DNA of 64,000 bases from a bacterium (GTDB lineage Bacteria; Patescibacteriota; Andersenbacteria; UBA10190), in assembly GCA_030698495.1 (NCBI GenBank), contig JAUYKA010000035.1, positions 8,778 through 72,777 of the forward strand, given 5' to 3'. Under the pieces are notes generated by a model. That model was not told the origin of the DNA and did no database searches. It saw only the letters and a program-made list of their open reading frames with translations. Positions 11,311 to 52,353 of this stretch are shown here, piece after piece. The position numbers and the translations under genes are program-made. Positions within the stretch are counted from its first letter, which is position 1, and the number at the start of each line of letters is the position of its first letter.

Positions 11311-11508
11311 TTTTATTAACTTAATATTTATGCTTCTATTGTACGCCCCGCGCACAATGCGGCAAGGGTTGATAATTATCGAGTTGCCAATTTTGTTTAA
11401 ATCTTGTTCTCTATAGCCTAACCGAATATATGTTGTATACTCTACCCCAGTCACCGCAATTCCCTAACACGAAGATACACTGCGTTCTCGTTTTTGTCTT
11501 TAAAAATT

Positions 11509-13068
11509 ATGCCAAAAGACCAATCTAAATCAAGCGCGGAAAAACGTATTCTCTGGGAAATAAGAGACAAATATCAAATCCCCAAATCCCCGCGCCGCGG
11601 CAGTTTGACCGCTGCTGCCCGAAAACCCACTCTGTCTGGCCGACCGCAACTCGCCCACGTATCGCCTCCCCCCGCACCGCCGCGTCGAGACAGCGCCAGG
11701 AGCAACTCGCGCCTACCGTCTCGTCCCGCCAAAAAACATTGGCCGCGCCGTTTTTTCATTTTGCTTATAATTGTCATTCTTTTTTCCGGCGGGGTTTTCG
11801 GTTATAAAATTTTAGCCGCCGGCAACAAAATAAGCAGCGCCGAGCGATCTCTGATCGGACAGATCAAAGACCTTTTTCTCGTCGGAGACAAACAACTTAA
11901 AGGAGAAGCCGACGACCGCATCAACGTCATGCTGATTGCTATTGGCGGCGCCGGGCACTCCGGTGAAAACCTGGCCGACACTGTTATGATCGCCAGCCTA
12001 AGACCGTCCGATAATCGGGTATCTCTCCTTTCTATTCCTCGCGACCTTTATGTCCAAGTACCGGGCCAAGATTATTACACGAGAATTAATGCCGTTCACG
12101 CTCACGGTGAATCCCAGAAAGAAGGTCAAGGACCCGAGATGCTCCGCGGTCTGGTCGAAGAAGTTACCGGCTTACCTATTCACTATTACGGACGCGTTGA
12201 TTTCACCGCTTTTAAACAAATTGTTGATGCCGTCGGCGGCATCGACATTACCATTCCTAACGGTTTTTACGACTATTGGCACAAAATTGATTTTCGCGCC
12301 GGCACGGAAAAAATGGACGGGGAACGTGCCCTGGCTTACGTTCGCGCCCGCTACATTGAAGGTCCGGAAGGCGGCGACTTCAAAAGAACCACTCGACAGC
12401 AACAAGTCTTAATGGCTATTCAGGAAAAAGTTTTCTCCGTTAACACCGCTTTCGATTTCGCCGGGCTCAACAAAATTCTCAACTCGCTGTCGGATAACGT
12501 GCGCACCGACATGCAGTTATGGGAAATGAAAAGATTTTACGAAATAGCCCGCCAAGTCAAACATGACAACATCTCTTCAACCGTACTAACCACCGGTCCC
12601 ACAGCTCCCCTGGTCGGCGCTACTGAAATTCTTGGCGACACCCCCGCTTCCGTTCTTAAAACAAAAACCGGGGACTTCTCCGAAATCCAAAGCATTGCCG
12701 CCGGACTTTTTGACAATATTCCGAAGACTGTCACCGCCACCGCCCCACCCCAAGCCTCACCTTCAACCAGCCCCACCCCCCTAACCAAACCTACTATCGC
12801 CATCAGAAACGGCACCGCCATTACCGGCCTAGCCAAACAAACCGGCGATGACTTGAAAGACAAAGGTTACACCGTTACCGGTATCGGCAATGCTGCGAGT
12901 AAAGATACCTCCCAAACAACAGTTTATGTTATCAACGACGACTACGAAGACCAGGCCCAAGACATTGCGGACACCCTGCACGCCCAACTTTCCCATAACT
13001 TGCCGGATAGCGAACAATCCACCGACGCTCAAGTCTTAATTATTCTTGGTACCGATACCGGCGCCTAA
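11509..13068 (+). CDS. LytR-CpsA-Psr (LCP) family cell-wall polymer transferase with an N-terminal TM anchor
   Basis: The ATG at 11509 is taken as the start. The ORF-track start at 11494 is a TTG. A basic cytoplasmic N-terminus, a TM helix and LCP-domain blocks (NVMLIAIGG...DTVMIASL, YVRARY) are present. The 3' end overlaps pth by 33 nt. Confidence 0.8.
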   Translation: MPKDQSKSSAEKRILWEIRDKYQIPKSPRRGSLTAAARKPTLSGRPQLAHVSPPPAPPRRDSARSNSRLPSRPAKKHWPRRFFILLIIVILFSGGVFGYKILAAGNKISSAERSLIGQIKDLFLVGDKQLKGEADDRINVMLIAIGGAGHSGENLADTVMIASLRPSDNRVSLLSIPRDLYVQVPGQDYYTRINAVHAHGESQKEGQGPEMLRGLVEEVTGLPIHYYGRVDFTAFKQIVDAVGGIDITIPNGFYDYWHKIDFRAGTEKMDGERALAYVRARYIEGPEGGDFKRTTRQQQVLMAIQEKVFSVNTAFDFAGLNKILNSLSDNVRTDMQLWEMKRFYEIARQVKHDNISSTVLTTGPTAPLVGATEILGDTPASVLKTKTGDFSEIQSIAAGLFDNIPKTVTATAPPQASPSTSPTPLTKPTIAIRNGTAITGLAKQTGDDLKDKGYTVTGIGNAASKDTSQTTVYVINDDYEDQAQDIADTLHAQLSHNLPDSEQSTDAQVLIILGTDTGA

Positions 13069-13617
13069 CTCACCCAGAACAGCAACTTTAGTCAAACTTG
13101 CCATCGCCGTCAGTTTTTGTTTACTCATCGTTTCCCGCTCTGCCGCCGAAAATTTTTGCAGCACATATTCTTCAGCCTCCATATTCTGCGGCGGACGTCC
13201 TATCCCCAAGCGCAAACGACGAACATCCTTGCTCCCCAACGCTGTCTGCACCGACCGTACCCCATTGTGCCCCTTAGCGCTGCCTCGACCTAAACGAATC
13301 TCGCCCAACGGCAGCTCCATATCATCATGCACTAATAATATCTCCCCCTTATCTAATCGCTCGTATCGGATAAACTCGCCCACCGCCTCACCGGAATTAT
13401 TCATCATCGTTAAAGGAAACATAACCGTTATCTCGCAATCACCAAACACCAACTTGGCGCTGGCCCATTTCCCGCTCGCGTCTGTTTTCCATCCCGACTT
13501 CACCGCCGATTCGTTTTCTCCTACCCAGTCACGCAGTGTTGCAATGCCAAAATTATGACGCGTGTTTGTAAAACGCGTGCCAATATTACCCAACCCGACA
13601 AACAACATCTTTTTCAT
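13036..13617 (-). CDS. pth: Peptidyl-tRNA hydrolase
   Basis: The N-terminus MKKMLFVGLGNIGTRFTNTRHNFG is the classic Pth signature. The protein is 193 aa. Confidence 0.9.
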   Translation of the reverse strand: MKKMLFVGLGNIGTRFTNTRHNFGIATLRDWVGENESAVKSGWKTDASGKWASAKLVFGDCEITVMFPLTMMNNSGEAVGEFIRYERLDKGEILLVHDDMELPLGEIRLGRGSAKGHNGVRSVQTALGSKDVRRLRLGIGRPPQNMEAEEYVLQKFSAAERETMSKQKLTAMASLTKVAVLGELGAGIGTKNN

Positions 13618-14482
13618 ATTTCCATCATAACCCGGTTACGGTCTTCTGTGCAGTTCCACTGTCGAGAGTAGTGAGAAGCGTAGGAGGGGTTGCTTCGCAC
13701 CACAAGCTCGCCAGCGGAACCGCCAAGAACACTCATTACCAGCTTTTCAACCTAGCACATGCGCCTGGTAAGTCAAGAATAGTCTGGTGTTTGTCACGAA
13801 CCCCACTTCGCTCTCACTGAAGCTCGAGCTTCCAGCCTTCGCACAAGGCTTCGGCCGGCGCGGCGAGGGGTTATCCCCCTTCGCTAAAGCTTCGGAGGGA
13901 CAGGTATTTTCGCTCAAAATGCGTGGCTCACCTTCGGTGAGCTCACTTATTTTGGCGAAAATATAAAAAAAAGACCCGTTGGCGCCTGAAGCTGCCACAC
14001 AAACCCTCGAGTTCAGACATGCTGATCTTTGAGGTTTCGCGGCAAGCCATCCACGGCGCCAAGCGGGTCGGGTAACGCCACTCCTCCGAGTGGCATCGAC
14101 CCTGGGCGTATGCTTCTACGGTATAGATAATAGCATCTCTTTACTGCACACACCCAAGAAAGAATGTCCTGCCCCGGGCTTTTCTATAACAGGCAAACCT
14201 GCCTAGTTAAAGCCCGGAAACAGGACAGATCGATTGAAGGAGGAGGAACGTCTGTTCGTTCCTTCTCTTCCTCTTCTCTGATCGTATGAGTAAACCTTTA
14301 CTCATACTCTCTCCTCCTTTCAATCTAGAGAACTGCTACGCCCAGAGGTCAGTTACCCTCTTTGAAAGGACTGTTTCCCATGACAGGCTCCCTTCCCAAA
14401 AAGAGTAACGGATCACCAGCTGTCTGCCTAAACAAACAGACCACCCCAATCAAGAAGTGGTGCCTACAATATATCAATGCTT
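13618..14482. other. An 865 nt non-coding gap between the TrmB-like regulator and pth that is unusually rich in stable hairpins. It is a candidate structured RNA locus of unidentified class.
   Basis: Multiple GC stems with UUCG-type loops are present (gcttcggc, cttcggag, ccttcggtg). A long hairpin gtcctgccccgggcttt...aaagcccggaaacaggac is present. A 14 bp-stem purine-rich palindrome gattgaaggaggag...ctcctcctttcaatc is present. No convincing protein ORF was found. RNase P, tmRNA and SRP consensus motifs could not be matched by eye. Confidence 0.4.
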
Positions 14483-15262
14483 TTACTCATTGTCAACACT
14501 TTCCGATTTGTCCCAAGCTAAATCAAAAAGACGCCTCATCATATCTGCCATAGACTGACTCTCGATAATTACCCCGCCAAGTTTTCCAGTAAACGACCCT
14601 ATAGCAATTCTGTCTTTAAAAATTGTCATACCACTGGTACTAGGAAACAGATCGGTCGGTACAAACCGTCTCTCAGATAATTTCAAATATTCTTTAGAAA
14701 AAAGCTTATTTCTCTGACTTAACGACCTAGTAGAAAAAATTGTCTTTGATTTGATTCTTTTTGCTAAACGTTGACGATAATATTGGTTCTCTTGTTCCGC
14801 AAAAACCGCGTCCAAATGATCGGATGGTGTAAAGTTGTAAATAACATCGCCCGGCTCGCTATACATCACAATTTCCTGTCTCATCGCATGCAGTCCCTCT
14901 TTGCCGCTAAAATACCTCACCGATGGTCGATCGCCAGCCGACTTCATTAATATCTGTAATGCCGGCAACAGACGCTCTAAATCATGCTCTTTGTCTTGTA
15001 TTACCTCGCGCTGCTTCTCCAACAGCCTCATCAACTGCCGCGGCGGCTCGGCTGAAAACAGTGTCTTTTTTCCTTCCTTGTATTGCGTTACCAAGCCCCG
15101 CTTCGCCAAAGAATCAAGCACTACGTAAGTCGTCGCCCGCACTACATGCGCCTTGCGCGATATTTGCTGTACCGCTGCCGAACCAAGCTCTAAACAAGCC
15201 AAGTATACCGAGGCTTCTTTATCCTTTAAACCTAGTTTTTTGAGTTCCGTCTCAAATGGCAT
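14483..15262 (-). CDS. TrmB-family HTH transcriptional regulator
   Basis: The N-terminus LGLKDKEASVYLACLELGSAAVQQISRKAHVVRATTYVVLDSLAKRGLV matches TrmB-type winged helix regulators. Confidence 0.7.
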   Translation of the reverse strand: MPFETELKKLGLKDKEASVYLACLELGSAAVQQISRKAHVVRATTYVVLDSLAKRGLVTQYKEGKKTLFSAEPPRQLMRLLEKQREVIQDKEHDLERLLPALQILMKSAGDRPSVRYFSGKEGLHAMRQEIVMYSEPGDVIYNFTPSDHLDAVFAEQENQYYRQRLAKRIKSKTIFSTRSLSQRNKLFSKEYLKLSERRFVPTDLFPSTSGMTIFKDRIAIGSFTGKLGGVIIESQSMADMMRRLFDLAWDKSESVDNE

Positions 15263-24138: not shown

Positions 24139-24225
24139 GCCGGGATGGCGGAATTGGTTTACGCGCACGACTCAAAATCGTGTGAGCTTACGCTCGTGTG
24201 GGTTCGAGTCCCACTCCCGGCACCA
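24139..24225 (+). tRNA. tRNA-Leu (anticodon CAA), type II with a long variable arm and an encoded CCA
   Basis: The acceptor stem GCCGGGA/TCCCGGC is present. The anticodon loop is cuCAAaa. The T-arm GGTTCGAGTCC is present. A possible TTGGCA-17-TACAGT promoter lies just upstream. Confidence 0.9.
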
Positions 24226-34444: not shown

Positions 34445-34512
34445 GTTTATAGCCTAAATCCAACCCACCCAAATTACCAGACAAGTCAACCAACATTATT
34501 GCTTTTTCATAA

Positions 34513-34676
34513 GCGAGAGGCACTTTTCGCGGCACCTACTTCCGGCAACGCACTTGCCCCGTCCAGCGACGGGACTGCGCTCGACTAAAAGCCTGCCGCT
34601 CCGCCTTTTAAGGCGGAGACCATGCCGGCAAGCTTTTAGACGGTTGCCGGAAGTAGGCACCGCGAGTGCCGCTCGC
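34513..34676. repeat. Palindromic element copy C. It is inverted relative to copies A and B.
   Basis: Its reverse complement aligns with copy A through ccgtct(a/g)aa(a/g)gcttg(c/t)cggcatggtc(t/c)ccgcc ... gtcgagcgcag(t/c)ccg...gggcaagtg. The outer imperfect stem is gcgagaggcac...gtgccgctcgc. Confidence 0.7.
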
Positions 34677-34746
34677 CACGAAAGTCCATGTAGAATAGGC
34701 TAACAATAGCCATTCTATCCTGATGAAACTCATATTAAGTTTTGTC

Positions 34747-34782
34747 ATTCCGGAATTTTGCCAAGGGCAAAATATCCGGAAT
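34747..34782. repeat. Short hairpin related to the element core (attccggaattttgcc-aag-ggcaaaatatccggaat)
   Basis: It has the same X-TTTTGCC-n-GGCAAAA-X' architecture as the central hairpin of copies A and B. Confidence 0.5.
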
Positions 34783-34818
34783 CCAAGCGGAAATTCAACG
34801 CTCTAGTATAACGCACCA

Positions 34819-34997
34819 GCAAGCGACGCCACGACTTTTGCTCTTGGCGACCGTCTGAAGGCTTGTCGGCATGGTCCCCGCCGTTATTTTGCCGCGGCAA
34901 AATAACGGCGGGGCGACAAAACTTCAGTCGAGCGCAGCCCGCCCGCAGGGGGCGGGCAAGTGTGTCGTCCAAGAGTGAAAGTTGTGGCGCCGCTTGC
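34819..34997. repeat. Palindromic element copy A (179 nt), ending 12 nt from the rarA stop
   Basis: The roughly 33 bp imperfect outer stem has G-T/T-G wobbles. The core is gaccgtctgaagg...ggtccccgcc-gttattttgccgcggcaaaataac-ggcgggg...cttcagtcgagcgcag-cccgcccgcagggggcgggc-aagtgtgtcg. Confidence 0.75.
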
Positions 34998-35008
34998 TAA
35001 TTAAAATT

Positions 35009-52183: not shown

Positions 52184-52353
52184 AAAAATTTTCTAATCTT
52201 CTGCTCTTAGCGACCGTCTGAAGGACTGCCAGCCTGGTCCCCGCCTAAATTTTGCCGCGGCAAAATTTAGGCGGGGTGGCAGGCCTTCAGCCGAGTAACG
52301 CCCGCGCTGGGGCGGGCGTTATGTGTCGCTAAGAGCAGAAGATTAGAAAATTT
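52184..52353. repeat. Palindromic element copy B (170 nt), ending 6 nt from the ileS stop
   Basis: A perfect 29 bp outer stem (aaaaattttctaatcttctgctcttagcgac / gtcgctaagagcagaagattagaaaattt) encloses the same core as copy A. The core reads ccgtctgaagg..ggtccccgcc-taaattttgccgcggcaaaattta-ggcggggt..ccttcagccgag..cgcccgcgctggggcgggcg..gtgtcg. Confidence 0.75.

Follow-up and report, generated by a model that had tools for sequence, protein, structure and literature searches.

Two conserved minus-strand RNA units, one with a mini-ORF, between a TrmB-family gene and pth in Candidatus Andersenbacteria

What occupies the 865 nt (13618-14482) between a TrmB-like gene and pth in a 64,000-nt stretch of DNA (hereafter the window) from a member of Candidatus Andersenbacteria (CPR)? 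The gap itself is genuine, and both flanking genes were confirmed with Pfam (Table 1). A preliminary description, made from the sequence by eye, had presented it as a hairpin-dense interval without a credible ORF in an otherwise tightly packed region. Folding did prove to lie well beyond that of dinucleotide shuffles, with whole-gap energies of -332 kcal/mol on the plus strand (z -11.0) and -384 kcal/mol on the minus strand (z -10.8). No protein-sized gene was found; however, a conserved 10-codon ORF (14381-14349) had been overlooked. Note also that tight packing does not hold throughout the region: further gaps of 300-600 nt occur elsewhere in the window. A replication origin at the gap was considered and rejected, as cumulative GC skew passes smoothly through the region.

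We are confident that the gap holds two conserved RNA units on the minus strand, designated RNA1 and el2, with the anatomy given in Table 1. Promoters, terminators, G-U pairs and covariance-model scores all agree on this strand. The earlier suggestion of a structured-RNA locus was thus well founded: across Andersenbacteria, two or more units recur whose promoters and terminators are conserved and whose helices co-vary. Neither RNA1 nor el2 is in Rfam 15, and outside Candidatus Andersenbacteria neither has been found to date.

Table 1. Coordinates of the RNA units, their predicted signals and the flanking genes (window positions).
Feature	Positions	Strand	Details
pth	13036-13617	minus	Pfam Pept_tRNA_hydro, E 1e-44
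Promoter-like site before pth	13624-13652	minus	TGCACA, 17 nt, TATGAT, ending 6 nt before ATG 13617; 9/12 matches
el2	13631-13733	minus	~100-nt long irregular hairpin, just upstream of pth
el2 helix P1	13720-13714 with 13659-13653	minus	GUUCCGC with GUGGAAC
el2 helix P3	13700-13692 with 13679-13671	minus	GUGCGAAGC with GCUUCUCAC
el2 apical loop	13691-13680	minus	AACCCCUCCUAC; CCCCUCC 13689-13683
Predicted promoter P2 (el2)	13749-13776	minus	-35 TTGACT 13776-13771, 16-nt spacer, TGc-extended -10 TAGGTT 13754-13749
Hairpin-rich insert	13790-13964	none	175 nt; lineage-specific, not conserved
Predicted intrinsic terminator T1	13965-14069	minus	97-nt GC-rich hairpin 14069-13973 + U8 13972-13965; z -5.4
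Small hairpin	14077-14094	minus	GCCACUC-GGAG-GAGUGGC; between LR domain and T1
Stem-loop III and LR helix 3' strand	~14160-14115 and 14113-14100	minus	3' strand GCAUACGCCCAGGG; MFE fold, LR-helix test
Stem-loop II (compound hairpin)	14166-14226	minus	repeat search and fold, z -6.5
Stem-loop I (palindrome)	14232-14325	minus	outer stem GAUUGAAAGGAGGAG / CUCCUCCUUCAAUC, 14 bp + one bulge
LR helix 5' strand	14335-14348	minus	CCUCUGGGCGUAGC; starts directly after mini-ORF stop codon
Mini-ORF	14349-14381	minus	AUG GGA AAC AGU CCU UUC AAA GAG GGU AAC UGA = MGNSPFKEGN-stop
Candidate SD-sequestering hairpin	14388-14404	minus	CUCUUUU, loop UGGG, SD-like purine tract GGGAAGGGAG (14397-14388)
5' hairpins of RNA1	A 14460-14441, B 14439-14420	minus	MFE fold
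Predicted promoter P1 (RNA1)	14468-14496	minus	-35 TTGACA 14496-14491, 17-nt spacer, TGn-extended -10 TATATT 14473-14468
TrmB-family gene	14483-15262	minus	Pfam, E 1e-14; stop codon 14485-14483

The preliminary description had left the class of RNA open among rnpB, ssrA, 6S and a novel family, and had recommended scans with Rfam and ARAGORN. Neither scan favored a known class. The gap had no Rfam hit above the gathering cutoff, and tRNAs were the only matches in the 64-kb window and 16 homologous loci; ARAGORN found no tmRNA, its sole call in the window being tRNA-Leu (24139-24225). A permissive Rfam scan (E<10, 13500-14600) gave Fibro-purF as its best match, at 19.9 bits versus a cutoff of 60. 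RNase P RNA, which has a core of P4 and CR-I to CR-V, was matched neither at gathering score in the 64 kb, nor at E<10 in 13500-14600, nor in the 16 loci. Models of tmRNA (a tRNA-like domain plus a tag reading frame) and of 6S RNA (a ~180-nt hairpin with a large central bubble) likewise had no Rfam match in the window or the homologous loci. Shape also led us to reject 6S, RNA1 being multi-branched with an internal ORF and el2 a 100-nt hairpin with a large apical loop and no central bubble. tmRNA was rejected also on its reading frame, which lacks an SD and AUG of its own; the mini-ORF of RNA1 has both. CPR RNAs can be divergent, and a divergent universal RNA (RNase P RNA, tmRNA, 6S or SRP RNA) would be compatible with the size and hairpin density of the gap, and with these only. 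Given the empty scans, and features that fit no such family (an SD and AUG mini-ORF, a CCCCUCC loop, an internal terminator and a second promoter), we assign this explanation next to no probability. The option of a novel class is the one that stood, no known family having been matched in the window or the 16 loci.

Protein genes and repeats were sought as well. The eight longest ORFs of the gap (38-83 aa) had no Pfam match at gathering score, the best reaching 15.3 versus 24.4 bits. By BLAST the gap is single-copy within the window, and a repeat or mobile element was rejected because searches against the window and all loci returned only 12-mers, the same MAG and the el2 apex, 30 nt of which match locus L011 (L-numbers denote homologous loci of relatives; WIN denotes the window). 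No dispersed copies of REP or MITE type were found within the 64 kb searched. A pth-based scan of a genome collection returned four loci, three of which were from Spirochaetales and had no related spacer.

The same locus was then compared among relatives, as had been proposed, and both RNA units recur there. The order TrmB, spacer, pth is kept in ~27 relatives, these being all the loci whose length takes in both genes, with spacer lengths of 350-1100 nt. The TrmB-like protein is itself highly conserved. All features conserved in the spacer lie on what is the minus strand of the window. In three loci (L012, L013 and L015) pth is inverted and convergent; the two RNA units still lie behind TrmB in their usual place and direction, and are therefore not simple 5' leaders of pth there. 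The simplest order is that of L021, with promoter, mini-ORF, terminator and pth; el2 is absent from this locus and from L033.

RNA1 is predicted to be a discrete ~0.5-kb transcript (~495 nt) extending from about 14461 to 13965, and it folds with a z of about -10. In the promoter scan P1 had 11 of 12 consensus matches with TG; it overlaps the TrmB stop codon, and transcription would start at about 14461. Most relatives inspected have TTGAC within the last TrmB codons and TAnnnT 16-17 nt downstream, with a few weak -10 boxes. RNA1 of relatives also opens, by inspection, with one to three hairpins of differing sequence. Next comes a GGAGG-type tract, found 4-12 nt before the AUG of the mini-ORF in 26 of 27 loci. 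Local MFE folding paired this tract with an upstream, mostly pyrimidine-rich segment in 22 of the 26. SD-like motifs were present at only 8 of 49 window genes, roughly the chance rate, so the strong SD of the mini-ORF stands out.

At a distance of 100-270 nt downstream of the TrmB stop, 26/27 loci have an SD with an ORF no longer than 12 codons, versus 0.02-0.15 expected per 290 nt. Lengths range from 3 to 12 codons (10 in the window). The peptide begins with MG in 21 or 22 of 27 loci, and the majority form is MGx-stop, with three codons. In the subclade of the window the peptides are MGNSPFKEGN (WIN), MGNSPSEQGR (L035), MGTSPSSCGR (L011) and MGNSPLHGG (L038). Their Ser codons, in that order, are AGU/UCU/UCG/UCA, which includes switches between the AGY and UCN boxes; the Pro codons are CCU/CCC/CCU/CCA and the stops UGA/UAA/UGA/UAA. 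Across relatives the wobble positions of Pro and Gly vary, and all three stop codons occur. This substitution pattern is of the coding type, and the mini-ORF appears to be translated. A GGGU...ACCC hairpin could contribute in part to the conservation of AUGGGU, instead of coding; note that L003 (MVH) and L032 (MIK) retain a three-codon ORF without this hairpin. Peptides in the alternative frame (M-x-W-V...) cease to be conserved after four residues. A different ORF, encoding a basic 32-aa peptide on the minus strand, had been offered earlier as a possible leader peptide. This ORF exists, with AGGAGG and an ATG at 14305, but it has no counterpart in the closest relative, L035, where there is no AUG at its start position. 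The idea of a leader peptide was right in spirit and belongs to the shorter mini-ORF, which lies 76 nt upstream and is kept in 26/27 loci.

The long-range (LR) helix closes a domain of three hairpins and ~225 nt, which includes the palindrome and the compound hairpin. It has a perfect 9-bp core (14345-14337 with 14110-14102), and only 1 of 200 shuffles was as good. A helix of different sequence is found at the same place in L035 (13 bp), L011 (14 bp), L038 (9 bp), L037 (14 bp), L012 (12 bp) and L017 (11 bp), and also in L022 and L036. In seven of the nine genomes with a significant helix it spans 204-251 nt; the spans in L037 and L017 are shorter, at 176 and 141 nt respectively. In the four genomes with a 10-codon form of the mini-ORF, the helix begins 0-3 nt past the stop codon, with complete turnover of sequence.

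Within this domain, the palindrome had been described as having perfect 14-bp stems enclosing two hairpins. The 14 bp (14325-14311 with 14245-14232) and the enclosed hairpins (14307-14284 and 14262-14245) are real; the stem contains a one-base bulge, and its perfect part is 9 bp. The block folds with z -6.8 versus shuffles. The base of stem-loop I, GAUUGAAAG/CUUUCAAUC, is kept in L035 and becomes GAUUGGAAG/CUUUCAAUC in L011, where a G-U pair is possible on the minus strand only. The compound hairpin described at 14166-14235 was also recovered, with CCGGGCTTT (14174-14182) pairing with AAAGCCCGG (14209-14217; z -6.5). Both recur, with different sequence, as stem-loops I and II of the domain in L035, L011 and L038, each of which has an unrelated hairpin of 65-70 nt at the same position after stem-loop I. 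L035 has an analogue (CCAGGCGUUUGCCUGG) of the small hairpin that follows the domain. Few nucleotides of the domain interior are conserved in sequence across the clade. A global alignment of RNA1 (MAFFT and RNAalifold) recovered almost no consensus structure because turnover of sequence and indels are high; conservation of the RNA1 fold therefore rests on folds of individual genomes and on the LR-helix test rather than on an alignment-wide covariation statistic.

This architecture invites comparison with large structured ncRNAs such as OLE, ROOL, GOLLD, raiA and HEARO, which RNA1 resembles in size (300-500 nt), hairpin density, long-range helices and lineage restriction. Were RNA1 an RNA of this kind, like OLE, ROOL, GOLLD or raiA, its domain would function through protein binding or catalysis, and the SD and mini-ORF would merely aid ribosome-assisted folding or stability, or be incidental. 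An LR helix that closes a multi-hairpin domain and is kept despite turnover of sequence would be expected of such an RNA, as would the z of about -10 and the discrete boundaries set by promoter and terminator. However, known large ncRNAs have conserved cores, and the domain of RNA1 has few nucleotides conserved across the clade and little conserved primary sequence. The best-conserved feature of RNA1 is instead the SD and translation start of a tiny ORF, and no Rfam model matched. We consider this explanation quite unlikely.

RNA1 would end at T1 (about 13965). A long-stem hairpin and U-run precede the second promoter in nearly all relatives, among which the 5' strand of the hairpin is partly conserved (for example, CCGCUUGG). 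Between T1 and P2 lies the insert, 13964-13790, which by alignment is absent from L035, L036 and L011 and is present in identical form only in a MAG of the same organism. It folds with z -5.7 on each strand and hence shows no strand preference. Its fragments resemble the el2 apex, and the insert therefore likely arose by local duplication. The preliminary description had drawn attention to UUCG-like loops on GC-rich stems. TTCG is real on the plus strand, but six of the seven occurrences are in this non-conserved insert and the seventh is inside a stem; as the RNAs lie on the minus strand, where the motifs read CGAAG, UUCG tetraloops are not the relevant feature.

The insert also bears on whether the hairpins are DNA-level or selfish elements (palindromic repeats, MITE-like sequences, protein-binding palindromes or duplication debris) rather than functional RNAs. 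It is confined to one lineage, folds no better on one strand than on the other and looks like duplicated parts of the el2 apex. A dispersed palindromic element exists elsewhere (34445-35008 and 52198-52317 of the window, and L039), and breaks of short-read assemblies fall inside the gap. This account fits the insert only. The remainder of the gap is single-copy, its co-varying helices have G-U pairs on one strand only, and its promoters and terminators are conserved in register, so that for the gap as a whole we hold the account to be very unlikely.

The second unit, el2, is one long hairpin with a single loop of 11-13 nt. Its predicted promoter P2 scores below the threshold of the consensus promoter scan; TTGAC and TAnnnT of P2 are nevertheless conserved columns in a 12-locus alignment, and transcription would start at about 13742. 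A covariance model of el2 (R1) found one match per locus in 16 loci, scoring 64-92 bits on the minus strand versus 18-28 bits on the opposite strand, and no second copy in the 64-kb window. Changes on both sides were seen at 23 of the 28 modelled pairs. Paired cells amounted to 81.5%, versus 68% when shuffled (0 of 500 shuffles reached this value) and 42-49% when slid. In the window el2 folds with z -7.3 on the minus strand versus -2.0 on the plus strand. CCCCUCC is invariant and apical in 18 of 18 sequences folded alone, two of which form a 2-bp pairing within the loop, and the loop sequence, CCCCUCC(U/A)A, is perfectly complementary to (U)GGAGGGG/AGGAGG. No Rfam model matched el2 in the window or the 16 loci, the RsaE/RoxS model included. 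In L013, L009, L012 and L018 el2 is followed by a terminator or U-run; in the window it runs into pth.

The pth-proximal promoter-like site overlaps the 3' flank of el2, and pth may be made as a leaderless mRNA from its own promoter. TAnnnT occurs 6-8 nt before the pth ATG in ~8 of 12 relatives; it also occurs before many other genes of the window.

These properties would suit two independent trans-acting riboregulators with no specific link to pth, el2 being an sRNA whose C-rich loop masks the SDs of the few SD-led mRNAs, in the manner of RsaE/RoxS or the RNAIII hairpins, and RNA1 its target or sponge. Each unit has a predicted promoter and terminator of its own (for el2, a terminator or U-run in the four loci named above), and neither moves where pth is inverted. 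RNA1 offers GGAGG at the SD of the mini-ORF and often also at the 3' end of the LR helix, to which the el2 loop is exactly complementary. A precedent is found in RoxS/RosA (PMC8216469). We searched variants of the el2 loop and the SD tracts of RNA1 for extended or co-varying complementarity, however, and found only the generic GGAGG/CCUCC core. An unrelated function would also not explain why every locus keeps pth adjacent, why the mini-ORF is conserved in the manner of a coding sequence, or why the LR helix abuts on its stop codon. On balance this alternative is somewhat unlikely.

The same pairing raises the question of a pair akin to type I toxin-antitoxin systems, with RNA1 as a highly structured toxin mRNA whose SD is sequestered and el2 as the neighbouring antitoxin sRNA, its loop complementary to that SD. 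Type I toxins are hydrophobic peptides of ~20-60 aa. The conserved peptide here has 3-10 residues and is variable and hydrophilic, no membrane peptide of 20-60 aa is encoded, and the 32-aa ORF of the window is basic rather than hydrophobic and lacks an equivalent in L035. With complementarity confined to the generic SD core, such a pair is highly improbable.

The reading that we prefer, and to which we give about an even chance, is that RNA1 and el2 form a translation-coupled regulatory device. The peptide of the mini-ORF is too short and too variable for a protein role, so that translating the mini-ORF would itself be the signal. The LR helix abuts on the stop codon and would have to be unzipped by a ribosome that occupies the mini-ORF or its stop, whereupon RNA1 would refold. 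Refolding could alter read-through of the terminator, or it could expose GGAGG tracts for pairing with the el2 loop. The module would in this way signal translation status to its neighbourhood, most plausibly to pth. Note that T1 is strong and that el2 has its own promoter, so RNA1 is possibly never co-transcribed with pth. By inspection, an antiterminator formed between the 3' strand of the LR helix and T1 would have only 6 bp in the window and is not conserved.

A more specific form of the translation-coupled device involves Pth itself. An ORF of three codons with a strong SD would correspond to a minigene design that maximises drop-off of peptidyl-tRNA, the substrate of Pth. Among minigenes the shortest, with three codons, accumulate the most peptidyl-tRNA, and Pth counteracts the effect (PMC2490762). 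A minigene placed in a switchable RNA might be both a generator and a sensor of peptidyl-tRNA drop-off that tunes expression of pth. If Pth or the cognate tRNA became limiting, ribosome occupancy on the mini-ORF would increase and the LR helix would be unzipped; tuning of pth would follow through terminator read-through, or through freed GGAGG tracts that pair with the anti-SD-like loop of el2. We offer this form as speculation that is unlikely in its full detail.

Two new candidate RNA families are described here; their boundaries are clear, they show covariation, and their place in the genome is conserved throughout a CPR class. The mini-ORF is a rare case of an ORF that may have three codons only and yet is deeply conserved with a coding-type signature. 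Its minigene-like design, the linkage to pth and the anti-SD-like loop together suggest a means by which ribosome or peptidyl-tRNA status might be monitored, which is testable. CPR bacteria are uncultured, few regulatory RNAs have been catalogued for them, and control of pth expression is, to our knowledge, poorly understood; our literature searches on control of pth by a minigene or uORF, and on CPR ncRNAs of such type, found nothing. Should the Pth-sensor form hold, peptidyl-tRNA hydrolase would have its first natural feedback circuit, and anti-SD mimicry would have been put to a new use by a lineage in which most genes are without an SD. Family building in the style of Rfam, and metatranscriptome checks, can start from the covariance model and coordinates.

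The 16S anti-SD motif is reportedly missing from about half of Parcubacteria (PMC9297842). In the window, SD-like motifs are at chance frequency, and the ATG of many genes is immediately preceded by a -10-like box, a pattern typical of leaderless mRNAs.

Several known systems share parts of this arrangement. Staphylococcus aureus RNAIII is a ~0.5-kb RNA with many hairpins, long-range helices that close domains and a small translated ORF (delta-haemolysin, 26 aa), and its C-rich hairpin loops pair with SD sequences. RNA1 is like this dual-function sRNA (others are SgrS and SR1) in size, hairpins, long-range helix and small ORF. Unlike in RNAIII, the C-rich loop belongs to a different RNA, the adjacent el2, and the ORF has only 3-10 codons; RNAIII has no sequence or Rfam relationship to RNA1. 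The functional resemblance of el2 to RsaE/RoxS lies in its unpaired, invariant, C-rich anti-SD-like loop, and, as RosA does for RoxS, a neighbouring G-rich RNA could titrate el2 or be its target. In contrast to RsaE/RoxS, el2 has a single loop instead of several C-rich regions, belongs to a CPR lineage and, in the search against RNA1, matched only the GGAGG core.

Leader-peptide attenuators (trp, his, pyrBI, erm/cat) have in common with this locus a short ORF with an SD and, between that ORF and a downstream gene, an intrinsic terminator. The short ORF has its ribosome-binding site in 26/27 loci, the terminator before the gene is T1 with equivalents in relatives, and L021 presents the plain order of promoter, mini-ORF, terminator and pth. 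The position of the ribosome would, as in attenuators, compete with an RNA helix, here one that starts at the stop codon. Unlike in attenuators, the terminator is at least 270 nt from the mini-ORF, regulatory codon runs are missing, inspection found no conserved antiterminator, P2 and el2 lie between T1 and pth in most loci, and the layout persists where pth is inverted.

Toxic minigenes, such as phage lambda bar and synthetic minigenes of 2-8 codons, share the design of the mini-ORF: an AUG with a strong SD, then two or three sense codons and a stop. Minigenes of the bar type cause peptidyl-tRNA to drop off and tRNA to be sequestered, an effect that Pth relieves. The MGx-stop form of most relatives, with GGAGG 6-12 nt upstream, combines a strong SD and AUG with at most ~3-4 sense codons before its stop; the window ORF has 10 codons, not three, and drop-off or toxicity would here be expected by analogy of design. 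The bar minigenes are not known to be sensors. The mini-ORF differs from toxic minigenes in being chromosomal, conserved across a bacterial class and physically linked to pth in every locus, and in lying inside a structured RNA of 0.3-0.5 kb with a predicted promoter and terminator of its own.

The 865-nt, hairpin-dense spacer noted in the preliminary description between pth (peptidyl-tRNA hydrolase) and the TrmB-family gene was confirmed, and each of its strands is predicted to fold far more stably than its dinucleotide-shuffled versions (z = −11.0 and −10.8). None of its eight longest ORFs (38–83 amino acids) reached the Pfam gathering score. The gap is single-copy when matched against the window and the collected loci, and cumulative GC skew follows a smooth course across it. 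Of the structures named earlier, the compound hairpin at 14166–14235 is real (z about −6.5 on its own), as is the palindrome at 14231–14325 (z about −6.8), although its 14-bp stem carries a one-base bulge, leaving 9 perfect pairs instead of 14. At its 3′ end, pth overlaps the convergent LytR_cpsA_psr gene (11494–13068, plus strand) by 33 nt.

Both database checks proposed earlier were performed on the whole window, using Rfam 15 at the gathering score with ARAGORN alongside for tmRNA. The sole Rfam match was a tRNA-Leu at 24139, and ARAGORN agreed, finding this tRNA only. With permissive filters, the top Rfam match in 13500–14600 was Fibro-purF at 19.9 bits (cutoff 60), and the spacers of 16 homologous loci contained no Rfam family match. 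RNase P, tmRNA, 6S and SRP were rejected because neither the gap nor these 16 loci gave an Rfam or ARAGORN match to them. What the gap contains is a module of two candidate RNAs, RNA1 (∼495 nt) and el2 (a hairpin RNA of ∼100 nt just upstream of pth), which belongs to no tested family. The call of a novel structured RNA thus stands, but not as rnpB, ssrA or 6S, and the relevant strand and small ORF differ from those first proposed, both RNAs lying on the minus strand and the mini-ORF at 14381–14349. The original observation therefore holds with corrections, and its interpretation is supported in part.

Features of the pth–TrmB gap and of related loci (WIN, the window's own locus; L numbers, homologous loci of relatives)
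Feature	Position	Strand	Details
pth (peptidyl-tRNA hydrolase)	13036–13617	minus	Pfam E 1e-44
el2	13733–13631	minus	fold z −7.3 minus vs −2.0 plus strand
el2 loop	13691–13680	minus	
Insert	13964–13790		no strand preference in folding; absent from closest relatives
RNA1 terminator	14069–13965	minus	long GC-rich hairpin + U-run
Mini-ORF	14381–14349	minus	MGNSPFKEGN in window
RNA1 promoter	overlaps TrmB stop codon	minus	TTGACA, 17 nt, TGaTATATT; 11/12 matches
TrmB-family HTH protein gene	14483–15262	minus	
Subclade mini-ORFs			WIN MGNSPFKEGN; L035 MGNSPSEQGR; L011 MGTSPSSCGR; L038 MGNSPLHGG
Long-range helix strands, WIN			CUGGGCGUA / UACGCCCAG
Long-range helix strands, L035			GACCUCGAUGGGU / ACCCAUCGAGGUC
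Long-range helix strands, L011			CUCCACUGGGUGUU / AACACCCAGUGGAG
Long-range helix strands, L038			GAUUCUGCG / CGCAGAAUC

Approximately 27 distinct syntenic loci were gathered by protein look-up, metagenome scan and genome scan. Every locus long enough for both genes has TrmB next to pth, 350–1100 nt apart. Pth is only ∼40% identical among the compared genomes, which are therefore deeply diverged; the TrmB-like protein is 60–78% identical where pth is only ∼40% identical, and TrmB homologues in this range carry the name Candidatus Andersenbacteria. In L012, L013 and L015/L016, pth lies on the opposite strand, downstream of a different gene, and converges on TrmB, RNA1 and el2; in L013, TrmB is also not preceded by full-length mfd. 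TrmB, RNA1 and el2 thus behave as the unit that is conserved, and a functional tie between the TrmB-like protein and the RNA module is possible. MAG GCA_034372665.1 encodes flanking proteins identical to those here; its assembly is broken within the gap at window positions 14309 and ∼14405, and positions ∼14310–14404 are missing from this NCBI MAG. Short-read assemblies of L001, L002, L008 and L010 also end within the spacer; break points lie at or close to the palindrome.

In most relatives inspected, the predicted RNA1 promoter has its −35 box within the last TrmB codons (NUU GAC) and a TAnnnT box 16–17 nt downstream; in nearly all relatives, the RNA1 terminator comes ahead of the el2 promoter. 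A GGAGG-type tract followed after 4–12 nt by an AUG and an ORF of ≤12 codons occurs ∼100–270 nt after the TrmB stop in 26 of 27 loci, where background predicts 0.02–0.15 per 290 nt. In 22 of 26 loci, local folding pairs this tract with upstream sequence that is mostly rich in pyrimidines. The peptide starts with MG at 21 or 22 of these 27 loci, most commonly as MGx-stop, with all three stop codons and with GGU, GGC or GGA for glycine. Retention of a three-codon ORF without GGG in L003 (MVH) and L032 (MIK) argues against a purely structural cause of conservation. The window's subclade has mini-ORFs of 9–10 codons with a coding-type pattern (in WIN, L035, L011 and L038, respectively, Ser is AGU, UCU, UCG and UCA, and Pro is CCU, CCC, CCU and CCA). 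In L029, whose mini-ORF is atypical and possibly AUG-UAA, a tRNA gene (L029:1357–1428) is inserted in the spacer upstream of the Shine-Dalgarno (SD) and mini-ORF region.

Start regions were examined for the 49 window ORFs of at least 120 amino acids. Only eight have an SD-like motif, about the chance rate, with a strong AAGGAG at a few; at many, a TAnnnT (TATAAT-like) box lies 6–8 nt ahead of the ATG, a pattern suggesting widespread use of leaderless mRNAs by this organism. The pth mRNA would be among them, as TATGAT ends 6 nt before its ATG. In a published survey, only 48% of Parcubacteria had the 16S anti-SD motif (PMC9297842). Against this background, two features are conspicuous: the deeply conserved strong SD of a three-codon ORF and the conserved anti-SD-like loop of el2.

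For the four genomes with a 9–10-codon ORF, a long-range helix begins 0–3 nt past the stop codon, with its partner segment 208–226 nt downstream, and its sequence is wholly turned over among WIN, L035, L011 and L038. Comparable helices occur in L037, L012, L017, L022 and L036. Nine genomes have a significant helix, with a span of 204–251 nt in seven of them and shorter spans in L037 (176 nt) and L017 (141 nt). WIN, L035, L011 and L038 share the layout of the domain that it encloses: stem-loop I (in the window, the palindrome), a 65–70-nt stem-loop II (in the window, the compound hairpin) and a shorter stem-loop III. Sequence-based alignment did not recover a consensus fold for RNA1, and conservation of the fold therefore rests on per-genome evidence.

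The earliest strongly conserved block detected was the el2 hairpin, whose loop reads A(A/C)CCCCUCC(U/A)A, with a promoter conserved ∼90 nt upstream (TTGAC, 16–17 nt, TGnTAnnnT). Single-sequence folds gave an irregular 85–100-nt hairpin with CCCCUCC at the apex for 18 of 18 sequences, among which the stems differ in sequence. In each of 16 loci, a covariance model found a single copy (64–92 bits on the TrmB strand versus 18–28 bits on the other); it found no further copy elsewhere in the 64-kb window, and the Spirochaetales pth loci had none. Both sides change in 23 of 28 pairs, and 81.5% of cells pair versus 68% in shuffled alignments (0/500) and 42–49% with partners slid; because this alignment is model-fitted, the independent single folds are the fairer evidence. 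A terminator or U-run follows el2 in L013, L009, L012 and L018; in the window, el2 runs on into pth. Two loci, L021 and L033, are without el2. Both (L021:3783–4136 and L033:3798–4351) keep RNA1 with its promoter, an MGK or MGN mini-ORF and its terminator, which pth directly follows in L021.

The UUCG-like motifs reported earlier are present, but six of the seven (CGAAG; TTCG on the plus strand) fall in the insert that closest relatives lack, and the seventh is part of the el2 P3 stem. Fragments of the insert resemble the el2 apex (repeats D3, D15 and D16). We read it as a lineage-specific expansion, any function being only putative. Elsewhere, the intergenic gap 34445–35008 (564 nt, GC 0.53) holds two very long, nearly perfect nested palindromes. 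Its fold (z −19.5 on the plus strand, −14 to −15 on the minus) exceeds that of the pth–TrmB gap, and Rfam gave no match to it at the gathering score. Part of this region is repeated at 52198–52317 (77% identity over 123 nt) and, within the TrmB–pth spacer on a different Andersenbacteria contig, at L039:1883–1930 (88% over 50 nt). The copies look like members of a dispersed family of palindromic (MITE/REP-like) elements that has no sequence relationship to RNA1 or el2.

Translation of the mini-ORF itself is likely the signal, since so short and variable a peptide can hardly be the product. A ribosome terminating at 14349–14351 would cover, and hence open, the long-range helix, and RNA1 would then refold; plausible outputs would be read-through of its terminator, altered RNA1 stability, or exposure of GGAGG tracts to the el2 loop. 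The combination of a strong SD and a three-codon ORF recalls toxic minigenes: peptidyl-tRNA accumulates most with their shortest forms, and Pth counteracts these (PMC2490762). Because of this minigene-type design, the counteraction by Pth and the linkage of the module to pth in every locus, we favor a sensor of translation status or Pth demand, with low confidence in the specific form. Several observations count against a Pth sensor: a strong terminator and a second promoter separate RNA1 from pth, the RNAs remain behind TrmB where pth is inverted (L012, L013 and L015), a search for a conserved antiterminator found none, and the el2 loop shows no specific co-variation with the RNA1 SD tracts. 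The main rival explanation is that RNA1 and el2 are autonomous trans-acting riboregulators, an SD-masking C-rich loop with a G-rich partner, for which RoxS/RosA and RNAIII are models. Literature searches brought up no account of RNAs of this kind in CPR bacteria, and none of pth being controlled by a minigene or uORF. The module has only some features of a leader-peptide attenuator; it resembles a leader-peptide/minigene device and a C-rich-loop riboregulator combined.
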